Shown: positions 33,857 through 61,390, numbered from the stretch's first letter. The stretch: 64,000 bases of DNA from an uncultured Bacilli bacterium (GCA_944332485.1 CALVKB010000002.1:11044-75043), one strand, 5' to 3'. Program-made: numbers and translations. The notes: generated by a model from the sequence alone, not told the origin.

Positions 33857-34123
33857 ATGAAAAACAAAAAAGACAAAACTTTGAAAGTATTAACAAAAAA
33901 AGGACAGAAGATTTTTCTCATTATTGGGTTATTTTGTTTAAAAATTTTTATCTTCTGTCTTAGTTTTATTTTGATGGTTTTATTTGGAGCCATAGATTTT
34001 TCTTCAACTTTAGGTAATCAACTTGGAATTTATATTCCACTTGGTATATTGATTTTAGATTTCATAGCCTTTATCATTTCAAGTATAGTGATAAAAATAA
34101 AATGCTCTGAAACTATCGACTAA
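33857..34123 (+). CDS. small membrane protein (88 aa), hypothetical
   Basis: Two hydrophobic helices after a Lys-rich N-terminus. Confidence 0.4.
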   Translation: MKNKKDKTLKVLTKKGQKIFLIIGLFCLKIFIFCLSFILMVLFGAIDFSSTLGNQLGIYIPLGILILDFIAFIISSIVIKIKCSETID

Positions 34124-34623
34124 ATCATATTTATTTCCAAATCGGACATCTCGTAAATTTTATTCTGTTTTAATGACTTTTTAACATCGATGAATCTTTG
34201 GTTTGAACTTCCTTTAAAAAGCAAACTAAGATCCATCTTTTCATATATAAATTTTCCATCCACTAAATAATCGATGTAATTTAAAATTTCGTTAAAATTA
34301 CTTTTGACATCTTCAAAATCGTAACCGGTGTACAAAATGATATCCAAATTTGAAAATTTCTCTTTTATCATTTTACAAACAGACAATGCATCTTCGTATT
34401 GATCTAGTGGATCTCCACCAGTTAAAGTTACTCCGTCAATATGTTTGTCTTTTCTAATTAGTTCTTCTATTTTTTCAATGCTGTATTCTTTACCTTTTTC
34501 AAAATCCCAGGAGTTTGGATTATGACATTTGAAACAATGATGTGAACATCCTTGAAAAAAGATCGCTAATCTTATTCCAGGACCATCCACAATACTCTCA
34601 TCTACAATTCCGTATAGTCTCAT
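34120..34623 (-). CDS. nrdG: anaerobic ribonucleoside-triphosphate reductase activating protein (radical SAM)
   Basis: GPGIRLAIFFQGCSHHCFKCHNP (Cx3Cx2C cluster motif); immediately downstream of nrdD. Confidence 0.85.
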   Translation of the reverse strand: MRLYGIVDESIVDGPGIRLAIFFQGCSHHCFKCHNPNSWDFEKGKEYSIEKIEELIRKDKHIDGVTLTGGDPLDQYEDALSVCKMIKEKFSNLDIILYTGYDFEDVKSNFNEILNYIDYLVDGKFIYEKMDLSLLFKGSSNQRFIDVKKSLKQNKIYEMSDLEINMI

Positions 34624-34628
34624 ATTTA

Positions 34629-36971
34629 TTAATCATCAAGATTAATCGTGTGTTTTACCCTTGCTTTCTCCTCAGCTTTTTTAGCGTTGTTAAATCTATC
34701 AAGTGTTCCAACTAAATAACCTGTGATTCTCCTAATTCTTTCAAATTTACTCTGCTCTGTTTCTTTTCTGTGGCATTTTGGACATTCATTGTCGATGATT
34801 CCGTTATAACCACATTCCGGATCTCTATCAACTGGATGGTTGATTGCACCATAACCAACACCAGCATCATGCATATGTCTGACAACTTTCTCATATGCTT
34901 TTATATTTTTAGCTGTATCACCATCCATCTCGATGTATGTGATGTGACCGGCTAATGTGTATTTATGATATTCTGACTCAATATCAATTTTATCGAACAT
35001 TGAAATAGGGTAATAAACAGGAACATGCATTGAATTTGTATAGAATTCCTTGTCAGTAACACCTTCGATAATTCCGTATTTCTTCTTATCAAGTTTGATG
35101 AATCTTCCGGAAAGTCCTTCAGCGGGTGTAGCAATAATTCCAAAGTTGAGATTGTGCTTTTTAGTTTCTTTATCAGCACGATCTTTCATAAATTTAACAA
35201 TCTTCAAACCTAATTCCTGAGCTTCTTTTGATTCACCGTGGTGTTTTCCAATCAAAGCAACCAAAGCTTCAGCTAAACCGATAAAACCATAAGTCAAAGT
35301 ACCATGTTTGATAACTTCTTTAATCTCATCGTCAGCTTTCAATTTATCAGAATCAATCCACACACCATTACCCATCAAAAATGGCATATTTTTAGCTTTT
35401 CTGTGAGCTTGAACATCAAATCTATCCAACAATTGTTTGGTCACCAAAGTCATTGTATCATCGAGCTTTTTGAAGAACAAATCAACATCGTGATGTGATT
35501 CTATGGCTAATCTTGGCAAATTAATCGAAGTAAAAGAGAGATTTCCTCTACCAGAAGTTACTGCTTTATTTGGATCGTAATGGTTTTCAAAAACTCTTGT
35601 ACGGCAACCCATATATGCGACTTCATGTTCATAATCACCATATTTCCACTCTTTTCTTGCGTTGAATGGAGCATCTAAGAATGAGAAGTTAGGGAATAAA
35701 CGTTTGGATGAGCAAACCATCGATTCGATAAGTAAATCGTAGTTTGGATCTTCTTTGTTATAAGAGATTCCTTCTTTCACTTTGAAAATTTGAATTGGGA
35801 AAATAGGTGTTTCACCATCTCCTAAACCAGCTTCTGTAGCTCTTAATAACTGTTTGACAACCAAACGGCCTTCATTTGATGTATCTGTACCATAGTTCAA
35901 AGATGAGAATGGAACTTGAGCACCAGCTCTGGAGTGCATTGTATTCAAATTATGAATCAAAGCTTCCATAGCTTGATATGTTGCATCAACAATATCTTTG
36001 TTTGAATCTTTGATAATAGCCTTTTTACCTTTCTCCCAGGAAATTTCTGGAATTTCTTTTTCGAGTAACTTAAATGTTCTCTCTATAGATTCATCATTCA
36101 AATAACGAGGTTCTTCATCTTTAGATATGAGATCTTTGAAGATCTTTTTAAGTTTCTCTTCATAAGAATTTTCACCATCGGTTTCAAAATCAGCATATTT
36201 TATACAGTTGTTTCTGAATATTTTATTGAATGATTTGATAACACCTGGAGCCATAGCAAAATCGAAGTTTGGAATAGCTTGTCCGCCGTGCATATCATTC
36301 TGATTGGCTTGGATAGCTATACAAGCTAAGGCGGCGTATGTTCTTATATCATTTGGTTCACGGATGAATCCATGACCGGTTGAAAATCCGTTTTTGAACA
36401 ATTTTAAAAGATCGATTTGACAGCATGTCAAAGTCAAGGAATAAAAGTCCAAATCATGAATATGAATATCACCTTCTATATGTGCTTTAGCGATGTCTTT
36501 ATCAATCATATTATTAAGATAGAAATCTTTTGCGGTCTCAGAACCATATTTGAGCATAGTACCCATTGGGGCATCACCATCAACATTCGCATTTTCCCTT
36601 TTATCATCGTTGACTTTACTATCTTGGAATGTGATGTTTTTAATAGAAGTCATCAAACGCGATTTAGCTTCACGAATTTGATTTCTTTGAGCACGATATG
36701 AGATATATTCCCTTGCTGTTTTACTGTAATCTAAATCTATTAAAACTTCCTCAACGATATCCTGAACTTGCTCAACAGTTGGTAAGTTTTCCTTATTATC
36801 ATATTTAGCATTAATTCTTTTTACAACTTCATCGGTTACTTTTCCAATGGAAATGTCCTCCTGTGTAACTTCACAAGCTTTTTCAATGGCGGCCATTATT
36901 TTAGAAGAATCAAATTTGACAATTCTGCCGTCTCTTTTAACAATTTTCTTGATCATTTTAAATACCCTCAC
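34629..36971 (-). CDS. nrdD: anaerobic ribonucleoside-triphosphate reductase (class III)
   Basis: N-terminal ATP-cone (KIVKRDGRIVKFDSSKI), C-terminal Zn ribbon CPKCH and glycyl-radical motif RITGYLVG. Confidence 0.9.
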   Translation of the reverse strand: MRVFKMIKKIVKRDGRIVKFDSSKIMAAIEKACEVTQEDISIGKVTDEVVKRINAKYDNKENLPTVEQVQDIVEEVLIDLDYSKTAREYISYRAQRNQIREAKSRLMTSIKNITFQDSKVNDDKRENANVDGDAPMGTMLKYGSETAKDFYLNNMIDKDIAKAHIEGDIHIHDLDFYSLTLTCCQIDLLKLFKNGFSTGHGFIREPNDIRTYAALACIAIQANQNDMHGGQAIPNFDFAMAPGVIKSFNKIFRNNCIKYADFETDGENSYEEKLKKIFKDLISKDEEPRYLNDESIERTFKLLEKEIPEISWEKGKKAIIKDSNKDIVDATYQAMEALIHNLNTMHSRAGAQVPFSSLNYGTDTSNEGRLVVKQLLRATEAGLGDGETPIFPIQIFKVKEGISYNKEDPNYDLLIESMVCSSKRLFPNFSFLDAPFNARKEWKYGDYEHEVAYMGCRTRVFENHYDPNKAVTSGRGNLSFTSINLPRLAIESHHDVDLFFKKLDDTMTLVTKQLLDRFDVQAHRKAKNMPFLMGNGVWIDSDKLKADDEIKEVIKHGTLTYGFIGLAEALVALIGKHHGESKEAQELGLKIVKFMKDRADKETKKHNLNFGIIATPAEGLSGRFIKLDKKKYGIIEGVTDKEFYTNSMHVPVYYPISMFDKIDIESEYHKYTLAGHITYIEMDGDTAKNIKAYEKVVRHMHDAGVGYGAINHPVDRDPECGYNGIIDNECPKCHRKETEQSKFERIRRITGYLVGTLDRFNNAKKAEEKARVKHTINLDD

Positions 36972-37284
36972 TCTTTAAAATTTTTATTGCTTCTAACTTA
37001 GTTGCAAAAAATTAATGTAAAAAAATTATATTCACTCTACCACTATGTTTCAACAAGAAAACACCTATTAAAAAACAATTAGTAAACGAGTTTAAAGTTG
37101 GTAATTTTTATCTAACTTGTCAAATAAGATTTTTATTTTTTAAAGCTGTAAAAATCTCTGTCAAAATTTTTTTAAAAAATTTTTTAAAAAGGAAATTTGA
37201 AAGCATGAAAATTAAGGTTTAAAAATTAATGTTGTGACAACTTTATAAATTAAACTAAAATTGTTAAAAGTTTTTAATAAAAAT

Positions 37285-37312
37285 AAAAAGCCACTTTTGT
37301 GGCTTTTGTTTT
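37285..37312. terminator. rho-independent terminator (bidirectional hairpin AAGCCAC-TTTT-GTGGCTT flanked by A/T runs)
   Basis: Perfect 7-bp stem with a 4-nt loop and a T-run; sits 25 nt below the SOR-like gene stop. Confidence 0.6.
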
Positions 37313-37335: not shown

Positions 37336-37746
37336 TTAATCTAATTTTTTAGCACAACCAGGAGTGTAGGTTCTTGTGAAAAGACCATCACGATTACAAT
37401 AGGCGTACATCTTGTCGATCTTCTCATCTTTCGACAATGAAAAATCAGCTACAGGTTCTTTTAATCCACCGATTTGAATTACATGCAAACCGAAGTTTGT
37501 TTGAACAGCGATCCAATCGATGTAATGGAAGTTAATTGTTGGATGATTTTCAACAACTATTCTCCATTGATTCATAGTTTTGTGATAAACTTCAATCTTA
37601 TGTTTATCATCGATGTTATCCTCTTGTTCAATCTCATGCATAACATGATTGTTTGATTTTAATTTACTGTCATAGTTAGACAATTTGATAACTACATCTT
37701 TACCATCATCGGATTTGTAAAAATGTACCTTTTCATTTTCTCTCAT
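37336..37746 (-). CDS. divergent superoxide-reductase-like (desulfoferrodoxin Fe-binding domain) paralog
   Basis: Aligns to the SOR at 57050-57418 (HFYKSDDGK / KFYKDKNNG; NHPTINFHYIDWI / HPMTEAHLIDLI; YAYCNRDGLF / YEHCNLHGLW). It lacks EKHVP and has Asp in place of the last His ligand. Confidence 0.6.
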   Translation of the reverse strand: MRENEKVHFYKSDDGKDVVIKLSNYDSKLKSNNHVMHEIEQEDNIDDKHKIEVYHKTMNQWRIVVENHPTINFHYIDWIAVQTNFGLHVIQIGGLKEPVADFSLSKDEKIDKMYAYCNRDGLFTRTYTPGCAKKLD

Positions 37747-37805
37747 AAATTTATCCTCTCTTCACTTTTATTTTAATTTATAAAAATTATACAAATCAAT
37801 TATTT

Positions 37806-38942
37806 TTAGTTTTGATAATATCTAACTGGTGTTATCAATTGCAGATTGCTCTCATCGCTTGAGACAACTCTGAACATTCTAACTTCACCGGAGAACAAGA
37901 TTGTAATATCATCACTTGTATGAGCTTTACAAGCATCTTTGACAAAATCTGCGTTGAAGTAGATTGTGAACTTATCACCTTCGAATTCGCAGTTATCCAA
38001 TCTTTCAACAGAATAACCATAAGATGGACTTCTTGATGAGATTTCGACCTTACTACCATCATAGACTAATTTTGCATTCTTAATGATACTTTTATCATCA
38101 CCGGAAACTATACAAACTCTATCTAAAATATCGACAAGTTCCTTTGAGGAACATTTAAGTTTATATGGGTAAACACTAGGTAAGATTTTTTCTGCTTCTG
38201 GGAATTCACCTGGAATTGTCTTTGCACTAATTGTGACAGAACCAACAGTGAAGCTAACTTTATCAGCACCAACACGGATTCTAACAACTGGAAGATGTTC
38301 CAATTTGTTTATAACTGATAAAACTTTCAATGAGCAGTTGAAAGAGACCATGACATTGCTTTGTAAAGGTAATGTTTTTCTAGCTAATCTGCAGGTGTCA
38401 GAAGCTGTGAAGGAAATCTTATGATCAAAACATTTGATGTTGATTCCTAAAAACATATCTCTGTTACTTTTTTGTGCAACAGCAAAGTAAGTTGCATCAT
38501 ACAATGTCTTGAAGTCTTCTGGAGAAAGTTCAATCTCTTCACCAACATGTGTACCAAGTTCAATATCAGGATATTCATTGCCAGGTTTGGTGTTGATATT
38601 GTAAGTTGTTCTATCATCGGATATTGTCAATAAAGAGGAATCCACTTGCTCAAGAGTTATCACTTCACCTGCAACTTTGGCAATAATCTCACGTGATAAT
38701 TTAGCAGGAAGTTGAATGGAACCTTCTTGAGAATCTAAAATAACTTCATTACCATCGGTATCTTTGTTGAATTGATTAACTTTGATTGTTATTTTTCCAT
38801 CAGAAGCAAGGATGTTGCATCCTTCATCTGTAATTGTTAATAAAAAGTTTAAAAAACAAGCTTCAGTAGATTTACTAGGGATTGCATCCATAGCGATGTT
38901 TAACATTTTTAATAATGATTGTTTTTTAATTACTAATTTCAT
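37806..38942 (-). CDS. dnaN: DNA polymerase III beta subunit (sliding clamp)
   Basis: 378 aa. N-terminus MKLVIKKQSLLKMLNIAMDAIPSKSTEACFLNFLLTITDEGCNILASDGKITIKV with a three-domain beta-clamp layout; divergent from dnaA. Confidence 0.8.
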   Translation of the reverse strand: MKLVIKKQSLLKMLNIAMDAIPSKSTEACFLNFLLTITDEGCNILASDGKITIKVNQFNKDTDGNEVILDSQEGSIQLPAKLSREIIAKVAGEVITLEQVDSSLLTISDDRTTYNINTKPGNEYPDIELGTHVGEEIELSPEDFKTLYDATYFAVAQKSNRDMFLGINIKCFDHKISFTASDTCRLARKTLPLQSNVMVSFNCSLKVLSVINKLEHLPVVRIRVGADKVSFTVGSVTISAKTIPGEFPEAEKILPSVYPYKLKCSSKELVDILDRVCIVSGDDKSIIKNAKLVYDGSKVEISSRSPSYGYSVERLDNCEFEGDKFTIYFNADFVKDACKAHTSDDITILFSGEVRMFRVVSSDESNLQLITPVRYYQN

Positions 38943-39099
38943 TTTATATACCTCATATAACTTAAATTATTATATCAATAATAAGTGCAATTCTTGTGGG
39001 AATGAATTTAAAAGTGAACTGATTTTTCAGAAACTGAAAGTTTAATTTAAATTATTTTTAATCTTTAAATTTTATATTCATTATTATGTTTTAATTTTC

Positions 39100-39700
39100 T
39101 GTTAATAACTCAAAAAAATGAATATATAAAGAAAAAAGGTTGTTTTGGTTGTTAGTAAATTGTTGATAATCGATATAAATTTGTTAGTAAGTCTGTTAGT
39201 AAGTTGAGTTACTAACAACTTGAAAAGGGTGAAAATTAGCTTAAAAAAGAAACTTGAAAAATTTATAAGAAAAAAATGATGAAAAAATTGTAAAAAGCAC
39301 TCCGTGAAATAATCAACTTTTATTTCACGATGAAAATAATTAAAAAACGAAGAAACAACTTAAAAATACTAACACGTTGCAAGTTAGTAACATGATTTAC
39401 TAACAACAATAAATATATAAAAATTCAAAATATTAAAAAAAAGTATCATTTTTGGATTTTTTATCAACAATTTATTCACATGAAATAAATTCGAAGTTAC
39501 AAACAAATTACCAACATGTTAGTAACTTTTAAAAAATTCGATAACACCTTTAAAATTCTTTAAAATAAATGCTTTTTTCAAATTTCAATTGTTAGTAACT
39601 TGTTGATAACTTGTTAGTAAGTGAAAAAACGATTGATAAATGATTTTTAATAGGTGAAAAAAGCACTATTTATATCGAAAAAACACGTTAGTTTTAATGT
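39100..39700. promoter_or_regulatory. oriC: DnaA-box cluster and AT-rich unwinding region between divergent dnaN and dnaA
   Basis: Perfect TGTTAGTAA at 39150, 39182, 39194, 39517, 39590 and 39612 (forward) and at 39209 and 39397 (reverse). Near copies at 39367 and 39382. TTATCAACA-type boxes at 39161 (rc), 39461 and 39601 (rc), and TTATTCACA at 39472. AT-rich stretches at 39225-39360 and 39410-39460. Confidence 0.75.
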
Positions 39701-39729
39701 TATAATTTAGAAGAAATAAGAGGTTATAT

Positions 39730-41121
39730 ATGGAAGAAGAAATCAACTCATTGGATCTTATTTGGGAAAATGTAACAAATCACTTGCAGGAAATTTTCGG
39801 ACGTCCATCATACGAAGCATATATTGAAAATATATGCCATCTTATGAAAATTGAGAAAAACAACGCCTATGTTGTTTGTGATCAAAAAGTTTCACTTAAG
39901 ATTCTCTCTCAGGATAGTCAGCTTGATAAATTCAAAAAAGCATTTGAGGAAGCAACTGGAACAAATTACAACGTTTTATTTTATTCTCAAAAAGATTACG
40001 TCAATTTAGACAAAAAGAAAGAGAAGAAAGAAACAAGCAAACCGGATCTTTTTGATCAGTACATCATCAGCCCAAAAGATACTTTTGATACTTTCGTGGT
40101 TGGTCAATCGAATAAACAAGCTTATTTAGCTTGTAATTTGCTTTGCGAAGATAAAGTTACATTTAACCAATTATTCATATATGCCGATTCTGGATTAGGA
40201 AAAACACACTTACTTTCCGCAATTTACAATAAATATAGGGAAGTTCATCCTGATAAGAAGATTAAATACGTTTGTATTAATGATTTTATAGAATTGTACA
40301 TACGATACGTCAGAGAGGAACAGAATAAAACAGGTGATGCAAAAGTAAGTGATATAAAAGATTATTTTGTTGATTTGGATTGTGTTTTATTCGATGATAT
40401 TCAATTTTTAACTGCTAAAAGAAAAACCCAAGAAGTTTTCTTCGATATATTTAACAAATTGCAGATGAGAAATGTCATAGTTGTTATGACATCAGATTGC
40501 TCACCGGATCATATTCAAGATTTAGATAAAAGATTAGTATCAAGATTTTCCTCTGGTTTATCCTGTTTTATCAAGATTCCAGAAAGATCTACAATGATCG
40601 ATATTCTCAAAAAGAAGATTGAACTTAACGGATTAGATATAAACATGTTTCCAGATGAAGTTTTGGATTACATCGCTTCTAAAAATTCCAACAACGTCAG
40701 ATTGTTGGAAGGTGCTTTGAATAGACTATTATTCTTATTAGCTTTACATAAGGATGTAGATAAAGTTGATATGAAATTTGTCCGTATGGCTTTTGAAGAT
40801 AACCGAAGTTACTCCAAAGAGCTTGATCAAGATCATGTTTTGGATGTTGAGGATATCATCTCCGAAGTTGCAAATCAGTTCAATTTGACAATAGGGCAAC
40901 TTAAATCGAAAGTTAGAACCTCACAGATTTCTTACGCACGACAAATCGCTATGTATTTATGCCGAGATCTTTTAAATGAAAGTTTGAACGATATAGGAAG
41001 AGTTTTTGGAAAAGACCATTCCACCGTTTTGGATGCTTGTAAAAAGATAACAAAAAGGATGGAAGAAGATGTCAATTTGAAAAAGACAATCAAGAAGTTG
41101 AAGGATAAATTGAAAAAATAA
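39730..41121 (+). CDS. dnaA: chromosomal replication initiator protein DnaA
   Basis: AAA+ Walker A YADSGLGKTHLL, Walker B VLFDDIQF, sensor and box VII regions, and a C-terminal DNA-binding domain (IAMYLCRDLLNESLNDIGRVFGKDHSTV). Confidence 0.95.
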   Translation: MEEEINSLDLIWENVTNHLQEIFGRPSYEAYIENICHLMKIEKNNAYVVCDQKVSLKILSQDSQLDKFKKAFEEATGTNYNVLFYSQKDYVNLDKKKEKKETSKPDLFDQYIISPKDTFDTFVVGQSNKQAYLACNLLCEDKVTFNQLFIYADSGLGKTHLLSAIYNKYREVHPDKKIKYVCINDFIELYIRYVREEQNKTGDAKVSDIKDYFVDLDCVLFDDIQFLTAKRKTQEVFFDIFNKLQMRNVIVVMTSDCSPDHIQDLDKRLVSRFSSGLSCFIKIPERSTMIDILKKKIELNGLDINMFPDEVLDYIASKNSNNVRLLEGALNRLLFLLALHKDVDKVDMKFVRMAFEDNRSYSKELDQDHVLDVEDIISEVANQFNLTIGQLKSKVRTSQISYARQIAMYLCRDLLNESLNDIGRVFGKDHSTVLDACKKITKRMEEDVNLKKTIKKLKDKLKK

Positions 41122-41609
41122 TGTTTGAAGTTATAAAAGATATTTATATAGGAAATGAGGATGACTTTTATAACTGTGCGAAATACGATGATAGTTTCAA
41201 TGTAATTCATGCTAAAAGTGAACCATATTTTGTCCAAGGTTTAAGTTATCTTTCTCAAAATCCAACATTATTGAAAAAACTTTACGGACACAGATATTTG
41301 TACTGCAGAGGGGAACTATGTTTAGATTTCCCTTCACCCTTTTATTATGATGATAAAACTCATCTGATGTTTGATGAAGCTTGTGAATATATAAAAAGAA
41401 CTTTAAGCCAAAACAAAAAGATTTTGATACATTGTGCAAATGGGTTTCAAAGAAGCCCAGCGGTACTTTTTTATTACTTTTTAAAAACAGGTTATATTAA
41501 AAATGATGACTTCTCAACAGCTTTGAATAAATTTTATGTTCTCTATCCTAGCTTCACTCCAACAAGAACAATGTTAGAATTTTTTCAAAATGAATTTTTT
41601 AAAAAATGA
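41121..41609 (+). CDS. dual-specificity / protein-tyrosine phosphatase (CX5R)
   Basis: Catalytic loop HCANGFQRS (C-x5-R). Its start overlaps the dnaA stop (TAATG). Confidence 0.7.
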   Translation: MFEVIKDIYIGNEDDFYNCAKYDDSFNVIHAKSEPYFVQGLSYLSQNPTLLKKLYGHRYLYCRGELCLDFPSPFYYDDKTHLMFDEACEYIKRTLSQNKKILIHCANGFQRSPAVLFYYFLKTGYIKNDDFSTALNKFYVLYPSFTPTRTMLEFFQNEFFKK

Positions 41610-41760: not shown

Positions 41761-42852
41761 ATGGATTATATGATTGAAAGCTTAAAAGCTATGAAACAAA
41801 GAATGTCAGATATCGATGAACAATTGATGACAAATAAAGATCATCACGGAAACGAATTGGATCCTGAAGATTATAAAAAATTGACTATTGAAAGAAGTTC
41901 TTTAGAGGAGCCTATGGAACTTTACAAGCAATATGAACAACTTGAACAAGATTTGGAAAGTGCAAAGGAACTTTCAAAAGAACAAGATAAAGAACTTAAA
42001 GAATTCGCATTAAGTGAGATTAATAGAATTGAAAAGGAATTACCTGAACTTTACTCAAAATTGCAGATAGCTTTATTACCAAAAGATGCTAACGATGATA
42101 AAAATGTCATTATGGAAATCAAAGGAGCTGTCGGTGGTGAGGAAGCCTGTATATTCGCTGGAGATCTTTTCAGAATGTATTCAAAATATGCTGATAAAAA
42201 AGGTTGGAAAATTCAGATGATTGATGAACAACCGACAAGTCTAGGTGGTTTTTCAAATGTCTCATTTATGATAAAAGGGAAAGGCGTGTATTCACGTTTA
42301 AAATTTGAATCCGGCTCTCACAGGGTTCAAAGAGTTCCGGCTACTGAAGCAAGTGGAAGAATTCACACTTCAACATCCACAGTTTTAGTTATGCCAGAGA
42401 CAAAGGAAATCGATATTGTTATAAATCCTGCTGATTTGGAAATTGACACCTATAGAAGCTCTGGTGCTGGTGGTCAAAATGTCAATAAAACAGAATCTGC
42501 TGTACGTATAACACATAAGCCAACAGGTATTGTGGCAGCTTGCCAAGTTGAAAGATCACAAATGCAAAACAAAGAGATCGCTATGAATTTATTGAAAGCT
42601 CGTTTACAAGCAAAATATGATGAAGAGAGAAATCAACAAATAACATCTGAACGTCGTCTGAAAGTCGGTACTGGTGAAAGAAGTGAGAAAATTAGAACAT
42701 ATAACTATCCTCAAAATCGTGTTACCGACCATAGAATAGGATTCTCAGTTTTAAAATTGGATAGAGTGATGGATGGTGATTTGGACGATATTTTAGATGC
42801 TTTGAAAGATGCAAACCAAGCTGACTTGATCAAAGCTTCTATGGAGAAATGA
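41761..42852 (+). CDS. prfA: peptide chain release factor 1
   Basis: GGQ motif ([19 protein letters not shown]) and the RF1-type PAT tripeptide ([10 protein letters not shown]). Confidence 0.95.
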
Positions 42853-42853
42853 A

Positions 42854-43666
42854 TTGATGACTTTGAAAAACTTCATCAATAAAATGAAAGAATATAATGT
42901 TGAAGTTTGTGATCAATATTTTCTTATTGAGAAAATCTTCAACATTAAAAAAGAAGACATATTTTTAAAAAGTGATATTGAATTAGATGAAGTTTTAGTT
43001 GATAAGATAATTTCAGATATTGCAAAAGAAAAACCAATTCCATATATAACAAAAGAAGTTGTTTTCTACAATAACACTATATTTTTAGATGAAAATTGTC
43101 TCATACCAAGAGTGGAAACTGAAGAGTTAGTTGATATTGTTGTAAAAGATAATTTATGTAATAAAGAAAAGAGTCTAAAAATTTTAGATCTGTGTTCAGG
43201 GTCTGGTTGTATCGGCATAAGTTTGGCAAAACTTTTTAAAAACTTTTCAGTGACTTTAGTTGATATACAACAAGAGTGCTTAGACATCTCAAAAAGATCA
43301 GCAAAGTTCAACAAAGTGAATAATGTAGAATTTTTAAAATCTGATTTTTTGTTAGATATTTATCAGTCTTTCGATATTATTGTTTGTAATCCTCCTTATA
43401 TTAAGGAAGATACAAAAATTATCACAAAATATGAAAACCCATTATGTCTTTTCTCTGGAAAAGATGGATTAGATAGTTTTAAAAAAATATTTTCTGAATT
43501 AGATAGATGCACAAATAAAAAAGCGAAGGTATATTTTGAATGTGAAGCTAGCAACATGGATAATTTAATAGTTTTATATAAAAACACTATTCAAGATATT
43601 TTCGCTTACAAAATTTTAAAGGACATGTCTGGAAAACAACGTTTCCTATTTTTAGAAAAAATATAA
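42854..43666 (+). CDS. prmC: release factor glutamine N5-methyltransferase (HemK/PrmC)
   Basis: SAM-binding LDLCSGSGCIG and NPPY motif (CNPPYI); located downstream of prfA. Confidence 0.9.
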   Translation: MMTLKNFINKMKEYNVEVCDQYFLIEKIFNIKKEDIFLKSDIELDEVLVDKIISDIAKEKPIPYITKEVVFYNNTIFLDENCLIPRVETEELVDIVVKDNLCNKEKSLKILDLCSGSGCIGISLAKLFKNFSVTLVDIQQECLDISKRSAKFNKVNNVEFLKSDFLLDIYQSFDIIVCNPPYIKEDTKIITKYENPLCLFSGKDGLDSFKKIFSELDRCTNKKAKVYFECEASNMDNLIVLYKNTIQDIFAYKILKDMSGKQRFLFLEKI

Positions 43667-43667: not shown

Positions 43668-44522
43668 TTAATCGCAATTTTGTACAAGTTCGTACATCAT
43701 ATTTTTCTTATCAGGATACATTTTAAGCAAGATATTCACGATAGATTTATTTGATAATTTCTCTTTTTTCATTTGAGATATTATCTCTTTTAATTTTAAT
43801 AGATCCATTTCATCAAACTCGTTTTTATTACCTTCAATAACAACCACACACTCACCTTTGATAAAACTAAGATCGTTATCTTTTAATTCTTTGTTAGTAC
43901 CTCTTATATATTCTTCATGAATTTTTGTTAATTCACGACAAACACAGATATTTCTTTCACCAAGTGCATCAAAAGAAGCAGTGATAAATTCTTTTATATT
44001 TAATGCTGTAGCGAAGAATATCAAAGTTTCTTTATTTTTTCTATATTGAGAAATTTGGGATACCATCTGAGAATATTTTTTAGAAATAAAACCTATGAAA
44101 GTGAATCTAGATGTATCAAATCCTGACATTATCAAAGCAGAGATGGAACTTGTTGGGCCAGGTATAAAGGACACCGGAATATTTCTTTGAATGGCTTGCT
44201 GAATTAAAATGGAACCAGGATCTGATATACCGGGAGTTCCAGCATCAGAAACATAGCACAAAACAAGATCTGATGAATCGACTTCATCGAGGAGTTTTTT
44301 TGATTTTTCAATCTCGTTTTGGGAATATAAAGAGATTAAACGAGGATGTTTAATTTCATATTTATTTAAAAGCACTTCACTGACTCTTGTATCTTCACAA
44401 CAGATAATATCGGCTTGCTTTAAAGTTTCAATCGCTCTTAAAGATATATCGGAAAGATTACCGATTGGAGTACTTACAAGTATGACCTTCTTTTTATATT
44501 CAAATGGTTTATTTCTTGTCAT
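43668..44522 (-). CDS. rsmI: 16S rRNA (cytidine1402-2'-O)-methyltransferase
   Basis: Tetrapyrrole-methylase fold N-terminus LVSTPIGNLSDISLRAIETLKQADIICCEDTR. Confidence 0.85.
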   Translation of the reverse strand: MTRNKPFEYKKKVILVSTPIGNLSDISLRAIETLKQADIICCEDTRVSEVLLNKYEIKHPRLISLYSQNEIEKSKKLLDEVDSSDLVLCYVSDAGTPGISDPGSILIQQAIQRNIPVSFIPGPTSSISALIMSGFDTSRFTFIGFISKKYSQMVSQISQYRKNKETLIFFATALNIKEFITASFDALGERNICVCRELTKIHEEYIRGTNKELKDNDLSFIKGECVVVIEGNKNEFDEMDLLKLKEIISQMKKEKLSNKSIVNILLKMYPDKKNMMYELVQNCD

Positions 44523-45681
44523 TTTTGTTATTCTCGTAGATATTTCCTAAATAACCTTGTTTATCATTGTCTTTCTTTTTGAAACGATCGAAGAAACTTG
44601 GGCGAGTATCATTTTTTGTTTGTTTATTATTGGTATGATTATTTCTGTTGTAATCATGCTTTTTGTAGTCATTGTTTTTATTGTTGTTTTTCTGTTTGAA
44701 GTTATTGTGTTGCACATTTTGTTTGGCTGGTTCTTCTGTTTGAGTGGTTTCTTTGATATAGATAGACTCAAAGCGATTGTTATTGTTGATAACAGGTTTT
44801 TCAGACGAAGATTTATTGAATAATCTTTGAGATAATTCAACTTTAGTCATATCATCACTGTGGCTGTATTTAAGTGTGTTATATTCTTCTAAATTTAATG
44901 TTTTGTAATCAGTATTATCAACTTGAACAACAATCTTATTTGAAAGATAGTTTATTGAAGTAACTTTGTAATTTTGATTGTTTCTATTAATTTCCTCGTT
45001 GAAAATTGGATAACCTTTTTTAAGTTCGTTGTACAATTCATCTTCATATTTCAAACAACAGATGAATTTTCCACATTGTCCTGTTATCTTTGAATTATTC
45101 AAAGAGAGATTTTGGTTACGTGCTAAGTTTATTGTAATACCATCAAAAACCTTTAAAAAGTTTGAACAGCAAATAGGTAATCCACATATTCCAAGGCCAC
45201 CTTTCAGTTTGGCTTTATCTCTAGCTCCGATTTGTCTTAATTCAATTTTGAAGTTGTAAATAGTTTTTAAAACTTTCAAAAGCTCTCTAAAATCAACCTT
45301 ATCGTCAGCGGTGTAAACAATCAGAAGTTTTGAATAATCAATTGTGTAATGGCAGGAAACCAAACGCATATTCAAATTTAATTTATCAGATTCAGCTTGA
45401 ATTCTTACTTTATCTTTCAATGCTAATTGAATTTGCTTTTGATAATTTTTCAAGTCATCATTGTTGGCTTGACGGATGATAGTTGGATATATTGAAGGTT
45501 CATCACTGACAATTTGAGCTGGTTTGAACTTCTGCTTGTAATTGATAGTTCCTAAAACCAAACCGTAATCAGCTTCAATAATAACTTGAGAGCCGACTTC
45601 AAGTTCATCATTGTTGGTTTGGAAGTATCTTATGCCATCAAAATCAGAAACTACACCGATTAAGTAAATATTTAAGTTCAT
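44509..45681 (-). CDS. ricT: PSP1-domain protein (RicT/YaaT-like)
   Basis: PSP1 C-terminal Cys-rich region GLGICGLPICCSNFLKVF...CGKFICCLKYE; conserved position between holB and rsmI. Confidence 0.75.
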   Translation of the reverse strand: MNLNIYLIGVVSDFDGIRYFQTNNDELEVGSQVIIEADYGLVLGTINYKQKFKPAQIVSDEPSIYPTIIRQANNDDLKNYQKQIQLALKDKVRIQAESDKLNLNMRLVSCHYTIDYSKLLIVYTADDKVDFRELLKVLKTIYNFKIELRQIGARDKAKLKGGLGICGLPICCSNFLKVFDGITINLARNQNLSLNNSKITGQCGKFICCLKYEDELYNELKKGYPIFNEEINRNNQNYKVTSINYLSNKIVVQVDNTDYKTLNLEEYNTLKYSHSDDMTKVELSQRLFNKSSSEKPVINNNNRFESIYIKETTQTEEPAKQNVQHNNFKQKNNNKNNDYKKHDYNRNNHTNNKQTKNDTRPSFFDRFKKKDNDKQGYLGNIYENNKNDKK

Positions 45682-45692
45682 CTGTCACCTCC

Positions 45693-46640
45693 TTATTTCA
45701 ATAATATATAGTTTATTTGACCGATAATACCGATCATATTAAGATTTGCTTGTTGTTTATAAATAGCTTGATTCAACAAATTGATTATAGAGATTATTTT
45801 ATCTTTTTTCTCAAATAAAAGTTCCTTATTAAGATTGAAAGGATTGGAATTTTGTTTGTTTATTGAATCGATAAGAATTATAGAAAGTACTTTGTAAAAA
45901 AGAAGTGCTTTAGATTGTTGTTTGAAGTTTGCGATAGCCTCATTTAAAAGAACAAACGTCGCTTGTTTTTCATTTGTTTGTAAAGAAGACATAAAATGTA
46001 AGCAAACTCCAACCATGGTTAAAAACTCTGTTGAATTTGCCAATTGAAGAATCTGCTGTTTATTTCCAGTGATATTAGATATAACTGTGGAAACAGCTGT
46101 ATTTTGCGTGATTTTGTAAATATCAGAATATATATCTTCATCAACTTTGATATTCACCAAACTGCTTCGAGATACGATTGTTGGCAGGACTTTGGTGATA
46201 TTTGTTGTTGTCAGTATTGCGACAACATTGACTTTTGGTTCTTCAAAAAACTTCAACAAAGCGTTGCTTGCTTCAGAAGTTATATTCTGTATTTCATTGA
46301 TGATGTAGACAACAGTTGTGTCATTTTCAATAGCACCCAAGGAGAAGTGATTTTGAAGTTCATCGACCTCCTCTTTTTTAATGGTGTGATCACTTCCATC
46401 TATAAAATGAAAATCAGGATGAATTTGTTTATCAAATTTCTCACATCTTGGACAATTGTTACAGGCGAAAGTATCCTCTTTACAGTTGATAGATTTTGCT
46501 AAATAAAAAGCGATATCCAATAAATTTGCTTTTGGATCGGAGTGCAAAAGTATCAGATGTGGAATTTTATTTTTAGTTTTAGCATTTTCAAAGAAAGTGA
46601 ATAAGATGTTTTGCTTTTTTTCAATGTACTCTTTATTCAT
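45693..46640 (-). CDS. holB: DNA polymerase III delta' subunit
   Basis: KIPHLILLHSDPKANLLDIAFYLAKSINC (degenerate P-loop), zinc module CNNCPRCEKF and an SRS-type motif TIVSRS. Confidence 0.8.
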   Translation of the reverse strand: MNKEYIEKKQNILFTFFENAKTKNKIPHLILLHSDPKANLLDIAFYLAKSINCKEDTFACNNCPRCEKFDKQIHPDFHFIDGSDHTIKKEEVDELQNHFSLGAIENDTTVVYIINEIQNITSEASNALLKFFEEPKVNVVAILTTTNITKVLPTIVSRSSLVNIKVDEDIYSDIYKITQNTAVSTVISNITGNKQQILQLANSTEFLTMVGVCLHFMSSLQTNEKQATFVLLNEAIANFKQQSKALLFYKVLSIILIDSINKQNSNPFNLNKELLFEKKDKIISIINLLNQAIYKQQANLNMIGIIGQINYILLK

Positions 46641-47271
46641 TCAACAATTTCTCTATTTGTTCTATACAATCTTTTGTGACTTCTTCAATCGATTTTGAAG
46701 CATCGATAATATGGATTCTCTCAGGGAACAATTCCTTCAATTTCAAATAACCTTTTCTCACTTTGTTGTGGAATTCCAAAGTTTCTAAGTCCAGTCTGTT
46801 GACTTCTCTTTGAGAGTTTTTGTTGATTCGTTGTAATCCAATTTTTGGATCGATATCTAAAATCAAAGTGAGTTTTGGTAAAGTGTTATCAATTGCGAAT
46901 AAATTGATATTTAAAATTTCATCCATGCCGATATTTCTTGCATAACCTTGATAAACCAAAGATGAATCAAGATAACGATCGGAGATGACAATTTTACCTT
47001 TTTTAAGATTAGGAATAACTTTTTCAACAAGATGTTGACGTCTTGAAGCTGCGTATAATAAAGCTTCTGTTTTGCCATCCATGTTGGTATTTTTCTTATC
47101 TAAAATGATGTTTCTAATATCTTCTGCAATTCTAACACCACCAGGTTCTCTTGTTTTGACAACCTCATAGTTGTTTTTTTCTAAATATTCGATGATGTTA
47201 GTTAAAATGGTTGACTTACCAGAACCTTCTCCACCTTCCAGAGTTATAAATAATCCGTTTTTAAAATTCAT
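46633..47271 (-). CDS. tmk: thymidylate kinase
   Basis: P-loop ITLEGGEGSGKST and DRY motif (ISDRY). The start is revised to MNFKNG, which has GGAGG 6 nt upstream (the track start at 47304 lies inside recR). Confidence 0.85.
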   Translation of the reverse strand: MNFKNGLFITLEGGEGSGKSTILTNIIEYLEKNNYEVVKTREPGGVRIAEDIRNIILDKKNTNMDGKTEALLYAASRRQHLVEKVIPNLKKGKIVISDRYLDSSLVYQGYARNIGMDEILNINLFAIDNTLPKLTLILDIDPKIGLQRINKNSQREVNRLDLETLEFHNKVRKGYLKLKELFPERIHIIDASKSIEEVTKDCIEQIEKLLNE

Positions 47272-47923
47272 CTGTTTCCTCCTTTGAAAAAGTGGATGAA
47301 CCACTTTGATTTGACTCAGTCTTAATTTGAATTCTTTGTCTTAGTGAAGAGGAGAGTGTTTCCTCATCTAGATATTCAAGTTGACTGTTGATAGGTATAC
47401 CATATGCCAAACGTGATAATTTGACATCTATTTTGTTGGCTTTCAACAATTTAGTTATATACATAGTTGTTATTTCACCTGTGATATCCGGTGAAAAAGA
47501 GAAAATGATTTCCTTGAATGAATTCTCTTTGATATGCTTCAGCAATTTATCAACACCTATTGTTGAAGGGAGATTTCCAACAGAAGGATTGATCAAACCA
47601 TCCAAACAAAAATACTGACCGAAATATTGGTTGGTATTTTCAAACTGCATGATATTTTTACTATCGGAAATGACCATCAATGTTTGTTTATCTCTTGTTT
47701 GATCAGAACATATCGGGCATACATCATTTTCATAAAGATTATGACAGATTGGACAAACGTGAATCTTCTCTTTGATTGATGCAAGATCGTTTGAGAATTT
47801 CTTTAATTCCTCAGATGATAAATGCAAACAACTGTAAGCTAATCTTAAAGCAGTTTTTCTTCCAATAGAAGGGAGTTTGATGAAATCTTCGACAAGTTCT
47901 TGAATAATTTTAGGATGTTCCAT
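47261..47923 (-). CDS. recR: recombination protein RecR
   Basis: N-terminal HhH (LPSIGRKTALRLAY), C4 zinc finger CPICHN...CPICSD and a Toprim domain. Confidence 0.9.
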   Translation of the reverse strand: MEHPKIIQELVEDFIKLPSIGRKTALRLAYSCLHLSSEELKKFSNDLASIKEKIHVCPICHNLYENDVCPICSDQTRDKQTLMVISDSKNIMQFENTNQYFGQYFCLDGLINPSVGNLPSTIGVDKLLKHIKENSFKEIIFSFSPDITGEITTMYITKLLKANKIDVKLSRLAYGIPINSQLEYLDEETLSSSLRQRIQIKTESNQSGSSTFSKEETDEF

Positions 47924-47931
47924 ACAAACCT

Positions 47932-49575
47932 CTACTTAAGAATATCACTTAAAAAAGCATCGGAATTAGAAACTTTGCTCTTTTTTTGTTTTGAAGCATA
48001 TTTGTCCAATTTATTCTCTTTTTTAAGTTGCACATATAAGTTTTTATAATCTTCGAAGGATGAATCAGTTAAGAACAGAACTTTTGTAATTTTCTTGGTT
48101 GGATTGAGAAGTTTGAAGATATTAATAAGATCTTTTTGATTCTTCTCAAGGATCAATTTTTGGAATTTGCTATTATCGGAGCATCTTAAAACAACAGTGT
48201 CCATGCTGTAAAGAAGAACTATGCATGATTCAAGTAAATTCATGATATATGCATTGATATCTAATAGTTTCCTTGATTGAAAATTCTCCTGCAATAATTT
48301 GTTGAAATTCATGGCGAGATCTTTGTTGTTGTTATGCATCAATTCGATAATTGTATCATTGTCATATTGAACATAGTTAGGTTGTGGTTCTTCAGTCATT
48401 GCTTGAGTTGGAATAGTGCTTTGTGTTGTTTCAACAGGTTTAGATGAAACAGTTTGAACTGAAGTTATCGGTTTAATTGGTTGTGCAGCTTGAAATTTGC
48501 TAGTATTCAAAGTGAAAATATTGATCAAAACCATCTCGAAATTATCATAGATGGAGCTTGCTTTTTTGTAATCTTGACGTCCTTTTAACAAAAGCATCAA
48601 ATTTTTATTCGCTTCTTCAGCACTCAAATTCAAATTTTTATAGATTTGTTTGTTTATTATTTTGAACAAAGATTCATCCTTTGTCAAAGAGTAAATCAAA
48701 TAATCCTTGTAAATCAATGTAAGATCATCATGTAACTTCAATAAATCAATACCTTTGGAATAATCCTCGTTCAATTTTTTCAAACAATTATCAAGATCGT
48801 TATTGTGAAGATATTCAACATATTTCAATTTTTCTGATAAAGTTAACAATCCGAAAAGATTGTTGATATCATCTAATGTGATATTTTTATCAACATATGC
48901 TAAAACTTGATCCAATAAACTTAATGAGTCTCTAACACCACCATCAGCTAAAGAAGCAATCTGATACAAGGCTTCCTCAGTGTAACTGACTTTCTCTTTT
49001 TTGAGGATGGTTTCCATATTTGCGATAAGGTCTTTGTTGCCGACTTTGGAAAAATCAAATCTTTGAACACGAGAAAGAATGGTTGGTAAAAGTTTGTTTG
49101 GTTCAGTTGTACACAATATAAAAACGCAGTATGATGGGGGTTCTTCCAATGTTTTCAAAAGAGCATTGAATGCAGCGTTGGACATATTGTGAACTTCATC
49201 GATTATATAAACTTTGTATCGGCCTAAAATAGGTTGATAATTCACCTGTTCGATCAACTCTCTTACTGAATCTACACCACTATTACTAGCTGCATCAATT
49301 TCAATGACATCTGGATGATCACCGTTGTTGATACTTACACAAGATGAACATTTATTACATAGAAATTCATCTTTATTATCAAGACAATTTAAAGCTTTAG
49401 CAAAAAGCCTTGCTAGAGTTGTTTTTCCGGTTCCTCTTGGGCCACAGAAAAGATAAGCGTGCGAAATTTTGTTCTCTTTAATCGCGTTTTTAAGTGTTTT
49501 TATAATAATTTGCTGACCTACGACCTGCTCGAAAGTTTGCGGGCGGTAGGTACGATACATCACTTTATAGGCCAT
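47932..49575 (-). CDS. dnaX: DNA polymerase III subunit gamma/tau
   Basis: Walker A CGPRGTGKTT, zinc module CLDNKDEFLCNKCSSC and SRC/SRV box LPTILSRVQ. Confidence 0.9.
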   Translation of the reverse strand: MAYKVMYRTYRPQTFEQVVGQQIIIKTLKNAIKENKISHAYLFCGPRGTGKTTLARLFAKALNCLDNKDEFLCNKCSSCVSINNGDHPDVIEIDAASNSGVDSVRELIEQVNYQPILGRYKVYIIDEVHNMSNAAFNALLKTLEEPPSYCVFILCTTEPNKLLPTILSRVQRFDFSKVGNKDLIANMETILKKEKVSYTEEALYQIASLADGGVRDSLSLLDQVLAYVDKNITLDDINNLFGLLTLSEKLKYVEYLHNNDLDNCLKKLNEDYSKGIDLLKLHDDLTLIYKDYLIYSLTKDESLFKIINKQIYKNLNLSAEEANKNLMLLLKGRQDYKKASSIYDNFEMVLINIFTLNTSKFQAAQPIKPITSVQTVSSKPVETTQSTIPTQAMTEEPQPNYVQYDNDTIIELMHNNNKDLAMNFNKLLQENFQSRKLLDINAYIMNLLESCIVLLYSMDTVVLRCSDNSKFQKLILEKNQKDLINIFKLLNPTKKITKVLFLTDSSFEDYKNLYVQLKKENKLDKYASKQKKSKVSNSDAFLSDILK

Positions 49576-49577
49576 GT

Positions 49578-50627
49578 TTAGGTTCGAGCTTGATATAGAG
49601 GTTTATTGTCGTCGTTATCTATATCTTTCATCTTCTTAGCAGCGAAGAAGTATCTAGCGACACAGGCTAATAAGAATATAAAACCAACAATCATTGTTGA
49701 TGGAAGGAAGAAACTGACGATAAAAGCGATGATACCAGGGGTGAATGTGAACATATAACCGACTTTTGTTGCACCCCAGAAAGACATATCTTTGTAAAGT
49801 GATTTTTTACCACGTGATGAGATGAAGAATAAAACGCCAATCACGAAGGAAATTACAAATACACCAACTTCATAGGATATTATACTCACCATGAATGTGT
49901 TCTTCTGAATTGGATAGTAACAATCGTTGAGGAATGTTTGCCAGTTTGCAAAAATTGTTGCATCAGTTATATTAACATCATCTTTAAGGAGGATATTTTT
50001 GAATGTTCCAGTTTTAACAACATCAAAGTATCCTGAAAAATTAGCGACATATTGTGAATCTTTTGTCAGATCGCTAACAGGATATAAGGAAATTTGAATT
50101 GTTGTTGGAGTAATTATCATGTAGGAATATTTTGCAATATCAGTAGTTCCATTATTACCATCAGAAGCTTTGAAGATGCTTTCTGATAAATTCTGATAAC
50201 CTTCTCTACCTTCATTGGTTAAAGGATCAGCATCATAATAAAACACTTTCATGACTTGAACTTCTTTATCTTGTTGTTTTGTTTTAATAGAAATTCCACC
50301 AGTGTATGTTTCTAAATTGTATGTAGCAAGTTCTTTGAATGTTTCACTTGGTACAAAATAATGGTCATCAGATATTGAACTATCTTGAAAACCGTATTCT
50401 GTGTTGGAAACAAGCTGGACTAATGCTGTATCAACACCGGAGGTTGTTCCGATTGCTTGACTTCCTTTGGTGGAAGTGAAGGTGTAATAAGGTGGAATCC
50501 AAACTAAACCTAGCAAAATTACGATGTAAATTAAGGCAAAATACCAAGGTCTTCTATAGTTATTGATACATTCTTTGTTGCTGAACATACCAACGAAAAA
50601 ACTTTTTATTGCTGCTAAAGCTCTCAT
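49578..50627 (-). CDS. hypothetical membrane protein (349 aa) at the head of the dnaX operon
   Basis: N-terminal TM, ~200-aa extracytoplasmic region and C-terminal TM helices; separated from dnaX by 2 nt. Confidence 0.5.
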   Translation of the reverse strand: MRALAAIKSFFVGMFSNKECINNYRRPWYFALIYIVILLGLVWIPPYYTFTSTKGSQAIGTTSGVDTALVQLVSNTEYGFQDSSISDDHYFVPSETFKELATYNLETYTGGISIKTKQQDKEVQVMKVFYYDADPLTNEGREGYQNLSESIFKASDGNNGTTDIAKYSYMIITPTTIQISLYPVSDLTKDSQYVANFSGYFDVVKTGTFKNILLKDDVNITDATIFANWQTFLNDCYYPIQKNTFMVSIISYEVGVFVISFVIGVLFFISSRGKKSLYKDMSFWGATKVGYMFTFTPGIIAFIVSFFLPSTMIVGFIFLLACVARYFFAAKKMKDIDNDDNKPLYQART

Positions 50628-52212: not shown

Positions 52213-52486
52213 CTATTTAAACCTCCTTATTTATTATTATAAATCAGAAAATATTTCTTAAAAATAAAATATTAGCAAAATATCGTTTTTCTTTATAAAT
52301 AGAATGGTTTTAACATTTTACAACTTTCATTTTTATAAAAGAATTGTTAAGTTTCAATTTTCAATTTTAATATCAACTTTTTGATTTTTTTAAGTTTTTA
52401 CTTTTATTTAAAATTTCATTTATAAATATATTAAAATAATATAAATCAACATTTTTTTGTGTTGTGCGAATTTAAGGAGACTGACC

Positions 52487-57049: not shown

Positions 57050-57418
57050 TTAATTTATTTTTTTAACCCAAAGTCCATGCAAATTGCAGTGCTCGTAGAC
57101 ATTTTGAACTGTTTCATTTGCACCGACTGTGAATTTTGCTTTAGGTTCTTCGTTAGGTGAAAGTTTTCTAACATAGACAGATTTATCAGTTTCAACGACG
57201 ATCAAATCAATCAAGTGAGCTTCGGTCATCGGATGCAAAACCTCACCTACAACAACGCTTACTTCACAACCTTCGATGTGAACTACAGGAACATGTTTTT
57301 CAACTGCAGCATCAGTTGTGTTTGCTTTTACTTCTGTTAAGGAAGTGACATCAACTTCATTTAATGAAGCTAAAGCGTGGATGCCATTATTTTTATCTTT
57401 ATAAAATTTTAAACTCAT
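57050..57418 (-). CDS. superoxide reductase (1Fe-SOR / neelaredoxin type) with a ~38-aa N-terminal extension
   Basis: Signature EKHVPV, HPMTEAH and C-terminal YEHCNLHGLW (four His plus one Cys iron ligands). Confidence 0.85.
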   Translation of the reverse strand: MSLKFYKDKNNGIHALASLNEVDVTSLTEVKANTTDAAVEKHVPVVHIEGCEVSVVVGEVLHPMTEAHLIDLIVVETDKSVYVRKLSPNEEPKAKFTVGANETVQNVYEHCNLHGLWVKKIN

Positions 57419-60907: not shown

Positions 60908-61042
60908 ATGAAAAGAACTTATCAACCAAGTAAGATTAAAAAGGCTCGTACTTGTGGTTTTAGAGCTCGCATGGCTACAAAAGATGGTAGAAATGTTTTA
61001 GCAAGAAGAAGAGCTAAAGGCAGATATCAATTGGCTGCTTAA
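60908..61042 (+). CDS. rpmH: 50S ribosomal protein L34
   Basis: 44-aa [47 protein letters not shown] with RBS AGGAGG. It is below the ORF-track length cutoff. Confidence 0.95.
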
Positions 61043-61045
61043 TCC

Positions 61046-61390
61046 ATGATAAAAAAATTTCGTCTTTGTAAACAAACAGATTTTCAGAATACCATCAAAG
61101 GTAAAACAAGAATGAAAACCGATTCATTCTCGATAATTTTAAATAAAAATAAACAAAATAAATCCGCTCGTTATGGGATATCCGTAAGCAAGAAACTTGG
61201 AAATGCCGTTGTGAGAAACAGAGTGAAAAGACAAGTGAGAAGCATGATCGGTGAGATTGATTTATTCAAAGAGAAGATCGATGTGATAATTGTTATCAAA
61301 GACGGTTATTTTTCTAAAACATATTTTCAAAACAAAGATATTTTGGAAAATATGTTGAAGCAAACTATTACAAGAGAGGTAAAAAGATGA
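61046..61390 (+). CDS. rnpA: ribonuclease P protein component
   Basis: Basic RNR-like motif VVRNRVKRQVR; located between rpmH and yidC. Confidence 0.9.
   Translation: MIKKFRLCKQTDFQNTIKGKTRMKTDSFSIILNKNKQNKSARYGISVSKKLGNAVVRNRVKRQVRSMIGEIDLFKEKIDVIIVIKDGYFSKTYFQNKDILENMLKQTITREVKR

Follow-up and report, generated by a model that had tools for sequence, protein, structure and literature searches.

A candidate one-piece replication origin with putative variant DnaA boxes between divergent dnaN and dnaA genes in an uncultured Bacilli bacterium

The dnaA-dnaN tandem is among the most conserved bacterial gene pairs and serves as a routine marker for finding origins of replication. In Bacillus subtilis the origin (oriC) is split into box sets separated by dnaA, and its unwinding element is located just upstream of dnaN. 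The oriC of Mycobacterium and Streptomyces is continuous, a single intergenic region of a few hundred bp with many DnaA boxes, flanked by co-directional dnaA and dnaN and located downstream of dnaA (PMC4285127). Origin gene order is known to vary (PMC4285127), and in Borrelia gyrB diverges from dnaA (PMC9879097). The contact residues of Thermotoga maritima DnaA have diverged (PMC7561715), and non-canonical boxes have been raised as a possibility for Borrelia burgdorferi (PMC9879097). Here we describe the dnaN-dnaA locus of an uncultured Bacilli bacterium, located in a stretch of 64 kb (CALVKB010000002.1:11044-75043; 30% G+C) that reads cleanly with genetic code 11 and is called the window below.

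In the window, dnaN (minus strand) and dnaA (plus strand) diverge, with a non-coding gap of 787 bp between them (38943-39729; the spacer). Judged from its sequence, the spacer is likely to be a continuous (one-piece) DnaA-dependent chromosomal origin. The locus resembles the split oriC of B. subtilis in its DnaA-box clusters, an AT-rich unwinding candidate just upstream of dnaN, a box-bearing dnaA promoter and the Firmicute lineage, and differs from it in that no boxes lie downstream of dnaA, the box is TTACTAACA and the dnaX block is head-on to replication. Because dnaA points away from dnaN, both box sets are found in one 787-bp spacer and are not separated by dnaA. With the origins of Mycobacterium and Streptomyces it shares the single intergenic position flanked by dnaA and dnaN, the size and the many boxes; however, it would lie upstream of both genes. 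The locus, found in an uncultured organism, represents a variant of a system that is well understood. Since origin gene order is already known to be variable, the rearrangement alone is of modest interest, and the variant boxes, which an earlier note on this DNA had not noticed, are the more novel point. A search of one literature library returned no paper joining divergently transcribed dnaA and dnaN with oriC, and a search of the open literature returned none describing TTACTAACA as a DnaA box.

Box clustering and strand composition at the spacer

Genes were called by protein-family profile scans (TIGR, Pfam), which covered open reading frames (ORFs) of at least 100 aa. The elements of the spacer and the two genes that flank it are as follows.

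37806-38942, minus strand: dnaN, sliding clamp (TIGR00663, 160 bits; all three clamp domains)
38969-38977, minus strand: extended -10 element TGATATAAT, putative dnaN promoter, 27 nt upstream of the dnaN ATG
39040-39135, no strand: candidate DNA-unwinding element, an AT-rich stretch in the dnaN-proximal part of the spacer
39150-39217, no strand: dnaN-proximal cluster of putative boxes (four TTACTAACA and TTATCAACA)
39302-39330, no strand: central inverted repeat CGTGAAATAA / TTATTTCACG, on the minus strand a hairpin of 11-12 bp followed by a T-run
39366-39405, no strand: middle group of putative boxes (ATACTAACA, TTACTAACT/TTAGTAACA, TTACTAACA)
39461-39620, no strand: dnaA-proximal cluster of putative boxes (TTATCAACA, TTATTCACA, TTACCAACA, TTACTAACA, then three tandem boxes at 39590, 39601 and 39612 with 11-bp spacing)
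39698-39706, plus strand: extended -10 element TGTTATAAT, putative dnaA promoter, 24 nt upstream of the dnaA ATG
39730-41121, plus strand: dnaA, initiator (TIGR00362, 382 bits)

All eight exact copies of TTACTAACA in the 64 kb fall in the spacer, at 39150-39620 (1.04 expected by chance). A further three TTATCAACA, one TTACCAACA and one TTATTCACA, as well as several one-mismatch sites, bring the total to about 14 putative DnaA boxes in 470 bp. Among 500-bp bins of the window, at least five boxes are found only at 39.0-40.0 kb, and every other bin contains two at most. No TTAYYAACA box occurs between 39620 and 44784, which includes the region downstream of dnaA. The entire spacer is 79% A+T, and its least stable 40-mer (39048-39087) lies at the dnaN end beside the first box, as it does in the two related species described below (loci L008 and L010). 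The first box with its flanks (ATTTACTAACAACC) is conserved in L008. The pattern TGNTATAAT has just five matches in the 64 kb, two of which are the elements upstream of dnaN and dnaA.

Strand composition also changes here. The cumulative GC skew of the 64-kb window has its minimum at 38-39 kb. Because coding strands are G-rich, gene strand was separated from position in the skew analysis. On the left (4.5-39 kb), the skew is -0.074 for plus-strand genes and -0.151 for minus-strand genes, and right of 39.7 kb it is +0.129 and +0.024, respectively; the corresponding intergenic values are -0.075 (left) and +0.123 (right). For example, the block from rsmI to dnaX has a plus-strand skew of about +0.03 though its genes are on the minus strand. 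Adding a replichore term to gene strand in a weighted regression of per-gene skew lowers the residual sum of squares from 210 to 78, with the switch best placed at 36-39.5 kb; the sign change is independent of gene strand.

If the origin were elsewhere, the spacer would be no more than a DnaA-regulated divergent promoter region, like the non-origin box clusters of B. subtilis, and the change in skew nearby would stem from gene content or from the boundary of an old inversion. We consider this quite improbable. The strand-independent sign change at 36-39.5 kb, with which intergenic DNA agrees, argues for an origin in the spacer; minus-strand genes on the right side already have positive skew, so the asymmetry tracks present-day replication. 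Moreover, about 14 boxes and an AT-rich stretch beside dnaA and dnaN are a standard origin signature, and there is no second box cluster in the window.

However, several observations weigh against placing the origin in the spacer, and some of them would fit an origin elsewhere. Skew at third codon positions alone puts the switch near 32 kb, and skew at first codon positions alone puts it near 41.5 kb; the switch can therefore be placed no more closely than about 32-42 kb, where the spacer is the sole candidate. Third-position skew was rejected as a stand-alone replication signal, for the third positions of dnaN, nrdD and a neighbouring ORF are strongly enriched in C, probably a matter of codon usage, and pull the fitted switch to 32 kb. 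The window spans only 64 kb, and the skew analysis is based on it and 10 kb on its left (74 kb), not on a whole genome. In the 12-20 kb loci of the relatives, which are too short or too weakly skewed to decide, L015 shifts as expected without a sign change and L010 has no usable skew. DnaA-trios were sought by eye downstream of the dnaN-proximal box, where no convincing 5'-CTA-type repeats were seen in a sequence too AT-rich to judge. The earlier note had proposed GC skew as a check of an origin at 39.4 kb; over these 74 kb, the switch at 36-39.5 kb falls near the spacer.

Two further parts of the spacer and one of the window can be described. The central inverted repeat has hairpin z values of -2.4 and -3.9, and a similar mid-spacer hairpin is found in L008 (about 8008-8036; z = -7.0); it could be an antisense-transcript terminator or a protein-binding site. 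Its half-sites resemble parS halves (TGTTTCAC) and the TnCACA half of the DnaA box. Motifs of the form (G)GTGAAAA(A) recur between box clusters in three species (39229-39260 and 39622-39662 in the window; 8140-8190 in L010). At the left end of the window, positions 1-4500, beside a tRNA-Lys (331-406), contain small unknown ORFs, DUF4417 and a Cys-rich CPCC protein, with a GC skew of +0.15 to +0.25, unlike the surrounding left replichore. This positive-skew segment was rejected as a replichore boundary, since the skew 10 kb further left (L021) is back to about -0.05, and it looks like an inserted or inverted island.

Variant boxes and the base-contact residues of DnaA

The spacer of the window contains no perfect copy of the canonical box TTATCCACA, and four of its boxes are within one mismatch of it. 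TTACTAACA retains canonical positions 1-3 (TTA) and 7-9 (ACA) and differs at positions 4, 5 and 6. TTA is read by Arg399 in the minor groove, position 5 is unread, and positions 4 and 6 are read by the recognition helix, residues 434-451 (PMC5742627, PMC5295017). A strain polymorphism that makes one box TTACCAACA is a change at the unread position 5. Boxes in L010 are TTATCCACA, TTATTCACA, TTTTCCACA and TTATCAACA, and L011, from a more distant member of the Bacilli, contains seven copies of TTATCCACA.

Six residues of E. coli DnaA contact bases specifically, namely R399, P423, D433, H434, T435 and H439 (PMC2533591, PMC7561715). These positions were mapped by alignment to 1J1V and 8BTG. The DnaA of the window has R, N, D, H, S and D there, which departs from the canonical set, and one homologue (P0002) has R, N, D, H, T and D. 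Among the 109 parsable sequences in a set of the 120 closest homologues, only these two proteins have Asp at the position of His439; the others have Thr, Ala, Ser, Asn or Lys, with Ser in L010. This Asp occurs in exactly the two species with TTACTAACA boxes, while L010 and more distant relatives keep canonical boxes.

Since positions 4 and 6, at which TTACTAACA differs from TTATCCACA, are base-specifically read in E. coli (PMC5295017), another origin-binding protein may recognise TTACTAACA, and DnaA may use only a few near-canonical boxes (TTATCAACA, TTATTCACA); the four boxes of the window spacer within one mismatch of the canonical one would suit such an arrangement. It seems unlikely to us, however. 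The L008 spacer has no site within one mismatch of TTATCCACA, yet it contains nine exact TTACTAACA. In the tandem boxes of the window, TTACTAACA and TTATCAACA alternate in the 11-bp register and have common flanks (TTG...AA), which argues for a single binding protein. Moreover, the TTA and ACA ends are kept in TTACTAACA, and it is the DnaA of exactly the two TTACTAACA species that has the unique Asp at a base-contact position.

From the above, the DnaA site of this clade may have been re-specified from a TTATCCACA-type box to TTACTAACA at positions 4 and 6, perhaps via the single substitution of the recognition-helix residue equivalent to His439 by Asp; we see the chances for and against this as evenly balanced. 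The amino groups of C4 or A6 could donate hydrogen bonds to this Asp. The co-occurrence of TTACTAACA and this Asp represents one evolutionary event, so the association is suggestive and not proof. T. maritima, with its 12-mer, and possibly B. burgdorferi are similar in having an altered box with substitutions at the E. coli base-contact positions. Compared with them, this is a small change (a 9-mer in which TTA...ACA is retained, with one unique substitution), and it is recent within one clade, whose sister L010 retains TTATCCACA-type boxes.

In the mechanism that we propose, DnaA would bind the approximately 14 boxes in three groups, with the consensus TTACTAACA(A) and the variants TTATCAACA, TTACCAACA and TTATTCACA, and DnaA oligomers would then open the AT-rich stretch at the dnaN end (about 39040-39135). 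The boxes lie between two divergent putative promoters of the extended -10 type, and from them DnaA probably regulates both dnaA and dnaN.

The sole TTACTAACA outside the spacer in the L008 locus is located at 5786, upstream of nrdD, and the window has a weaker TTACTAATT-like site there (37079-37090). This nrdD-upstream box hints at a regulation of the ribonucleotide reductase genes by DnaA.

Conservation and history of the gene order

Outside dnaN and dnaA, the locus and its surroundings contain the following features.

34120-34623, minus strand: nrdG (PF13353/PF04055)
34629-36971, minus strand: nrdD (PF13597, 671 bits)
37286-37307, minus strand: intrinsic-terminator-like hairpin (9-bp stem, 4-nt loop, T-run), closing the unit of dnaN and the next ORF
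37336-37746, minus strand: superoxide reductase (SOR)-like ORF of 136 aa (PF01880, 23.4 bits), 59 nt past dnaN
41121-41609, plus strand: stand-alone CX5R dual-specificity phosphatase (PF00782, 39.7 bits)
41761-42852, plus strand: prfA (TIGR00019, 494 bits)
42854-43666, plus strand: prmC (TIGR03534, 197 bits)
43668-50627, minus strand: rsmI-ricT-holB-tmk-recR-dnaX and a 349-aa unknown ORF (profile scans)
60909-63660, plus strand: rpmH (60909-61043, read directly from the sequence), then rnpA, yidC and jag

This order, with its gene calls and coordinates, agrees with the one given in the earlier note, which had dnaN inverted relative to dnaA and followed after 59 nt by the SOR-like gene and a terminator, dnaA overlapped by the phosphatase gene and followed by prfA-prmC, and the rpmH-rnpA block to the right on the strand of dnaA; the latter is indeed found about 20 kb downstream of dnaA. 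The absence of recF, gyrB and gyrA, also claimed there, holds for ORFs of 100 aa or more across the 64 kb. In their place downstream of dnaN stand nrdD and nrdG, an anaerobic ribonucleotide reductase pair. The locus differs from the textbook Firmicute cluster in that dnaA and dnaN are not tandem and rpmH-rnpA is not divergent just upstream of dnaA. Rfam and tRNA scans gave no match in or near the origin locus.

The same order is found in other assemblies. DnaA is 99% identical on ten contigs, and the six that were inspected (L002-L007, from different samples) have an identical order on both sides. Their spacers are about 94% identical to that of the window (about 50 of 787 positions differ), so these six assemblies are independent strains and not copies of one assembly. 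Only two closer relatives were found among 5.8 billion proteins, with DnaA identities of 67% (L008, and L015/L016 from the same species) and 48% (L010), and the next-best DnaA homologues are about 43% identical. In both relatives, nrdG-nrdD-SOR-like-dnaN points left, dnaA, one further gene, prfA and prmC point right, and the inverted block from rsmI to dnaX follows. The nrdG/nrdD pair is a conserved left flank, in the same place in L002-L005, L008, L010 and L015, and the block from rsmI to dnaX is conserved in L002-L007, L010 and L015.

The source is a metagenome assembly, and the earlier note had raised the possibility of an assembly inversion. Misassembly is excluded by the same junctions in the six independent assemblies and the two related species, and we regard an artefact or a recent strain-level inversion as extremely improbable. 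No long inverted repeats or scars were found flanking any junction, and the composition of the head-on block is already adjusted to its position.

More distant Bacilli keep the textbook order or dnaA followed by dnaN. In L013/L014 (a metagenome-assembled genome, MAG, of Bacilli) the cluster is exactly the textbook one, with mnmE-jag-yidC-rnpA-rpmH pointing left and dnaA-dnaN-yaaA-recF-gyrB-gyrA on the other side, and in L011/L012 dnaN follows dnaA. A small clade thus shares the divergent layout as a derived trait, and the departure from the textbook order that the earlier note had claimed is borne out. Close relatives do share the order, but in the window species the switch in skew is at this locus and not at another.

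All that is known of this clade comes from metagenomes, and no close DnaA turned up in a pattern scan of 185,579 GTDB species representatives, which gave only a chance match in Prevotellaceae. The nearest named DnaA matches are from Bacilli and Erysipelotrichaceae MAGs. YidC and a MAG1210-family protein (567 bits) best fit mycoplasma-type models, which suggests that the host belongs to uncultured, Mollicutes-like Bacilli. Two tandem P-type ATPases and the MAG1210-family protein are located at 4523-9920 and 27423-29330 (minus strand).

From the proposed origin, the leftward fork would move co-directionally with dnaN, the SOR-like ORF and nrdDG, and the rightward fork with dnaA, the phosphatase gene and prfA-prmC, before running head-on into the block from rsmI to dnaX. 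Since the origin is most likely at about 39.4 kb, where skew and the box cluster place it, the dnaX operon is head-on to replication, as the earlier note had expected for an origin at that point. A dnaX-recR-tmk-holB-ricT-rsmI neighbourhood near the origin is also found in B. subtilis, and the block here is a compact version of that right-of-origin region. RicT/YaaT (44509-45681, minus strand) has an Asn- and Lys-rich C-terminal extension of about 140 aa, and yabA is absent between ricT and rsmI in the window, unlike in B. subtilis. Between dnaX and recR, ybaB/ebfC is present in L010 (16733-17125) and missing at the corresponding window position (47923-47932).

The simplest route from the textbook order would be to flip dnaA, together with the boxes and promoter upstream of it, against dnaN. 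The two halves of a split origin like that of B. subtilis would thereby come together in a single spacer and, read on the other strand, rpmH-rnpA would be found downstream of dnaA and on its strand, as seen. At least one further rearrangement would be needed for the 20 kb between dnaA and rpmH and for the head-on block from rsmI to dnaX. One or more inversions around the origin, as the earlier note suggested, are thus plausible, with at least two events needed, but the route is a reconstruction without breakpoints that support it, and this speaks against it. The block genes on the minus strand have the skew of the right replichore, and a relative whose DnaA is as little as 48% identical has the same order, so the events are ancient; the layout is a fixed, old trait of the lineage and not a recent rearrangement.

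Genes beside dnaN and dnaA, and what the locus means

The earlier note had called dnaN and the SOR-like gene co-operonic. There is no terminator between them, but the 59-nt gap contains a TATAAT, and the SOR-like ORF may instead have its own promoter. The SOR label is right as far as the fold is concerned: the PF01880 match is marginal (against a cutoff of 22.2 bits), and the structural database gave a class III SOR, that of Treponema pallidum (PDB 1Y07, E=2e-5), as the best match. Like this enzyme, the protein lacks the FeCys4 site in its N-terminal domain and retains the motifs HPxxxxHYIxWI and C-N. However, the protein lacks the defining iron ligand, since it reads CNRDG for C-N-x-H-G and the His of C-x-x-H is Asp, which leaves the Fe(His)4Cys centre, made up by the motifs K-H, H-P, H-x and C-x-x-H, incomplete. 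This His is missing in all of the family members (8 of 8), and two further His are lost in P0125-P0128. A canonical 1Fe-SOR is encoded at 57050-57418 (minus strand; PF01880, 60 bits) with EKHVP, HPM..AH and CNLHG all present, so the ORF beside dnaN is a degenerate second copy of the fold and not the SOR of the cell. A functional link with dnaN was rejected, since homologues about 55% identical are located after tuf or ldh in other organisms; the pairing is clade-specific and probably incidental.

The ATG of the phosphatase gene overlaps the stop codon of dnaA as TAATG. The P-loop IHCANGFQRS is intact (HCX5R(S/T)), and the PF00782 score compares with a cutoff of 33.5 bits. Structural matches are to PDB 3LJ8, DUSP10 and VHR. 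The protein is similar to phosphatases of the VH1/MKP type in its HCX5R(S) P-loop and domain size, and differs from them as a bacterial stand-alone protein of 162 aa that is very divergent, with its start overlapping the dnaA stop. An orthologue in L010, 43% identical and directly after dnaA, has the P-loop VHCGEGICRS. A YDD motif at about -28 from the Cys is common to these two proteins (the general-acid Asp is expected about 30 residues upstream of it). Only 22 matches at E <= 1e-10 were found among 1.84 billion representatives, and the nearest outside the species is 48% identical. The position after dnaA is taken by an unrelated ORF in L008/L015; the 260-aa ORF at this position in L008 was considered as a homologue and rejected, with no homology found. 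A role of the phosphatase in replication control is no more than conceivable.

Further to the right, an ORF of 1274 aa (52457-56281, plus strand) matches no Pfam family; its N-terminal part resembles the anti-phage protein ProA, but only below the threshold. The 1286-aa ORF located after dnaN in L011 was considered as a homologue of this ORF and rejected, because no homology was found.

In summary, a stably divergent dnaN-dnaA pair and a stably head-on, essential clamp-loader operon indicate that neither the tandem arrangement nor co-direction is required, and the locus is a counter-example for origin-prediction tools. Why Firmicute origins are split or continuous is an open question (PMC4285127), and this clade is a natural case of two origin halves in one spacer. 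If DnaA binds the variant box, a testable hypothesis follows on the residue that sets specificity at positions 4-6. If the re-specification is true, the clade would provide a natural example of a minimal pair, an essential initiator that has changed in concert with its origin.

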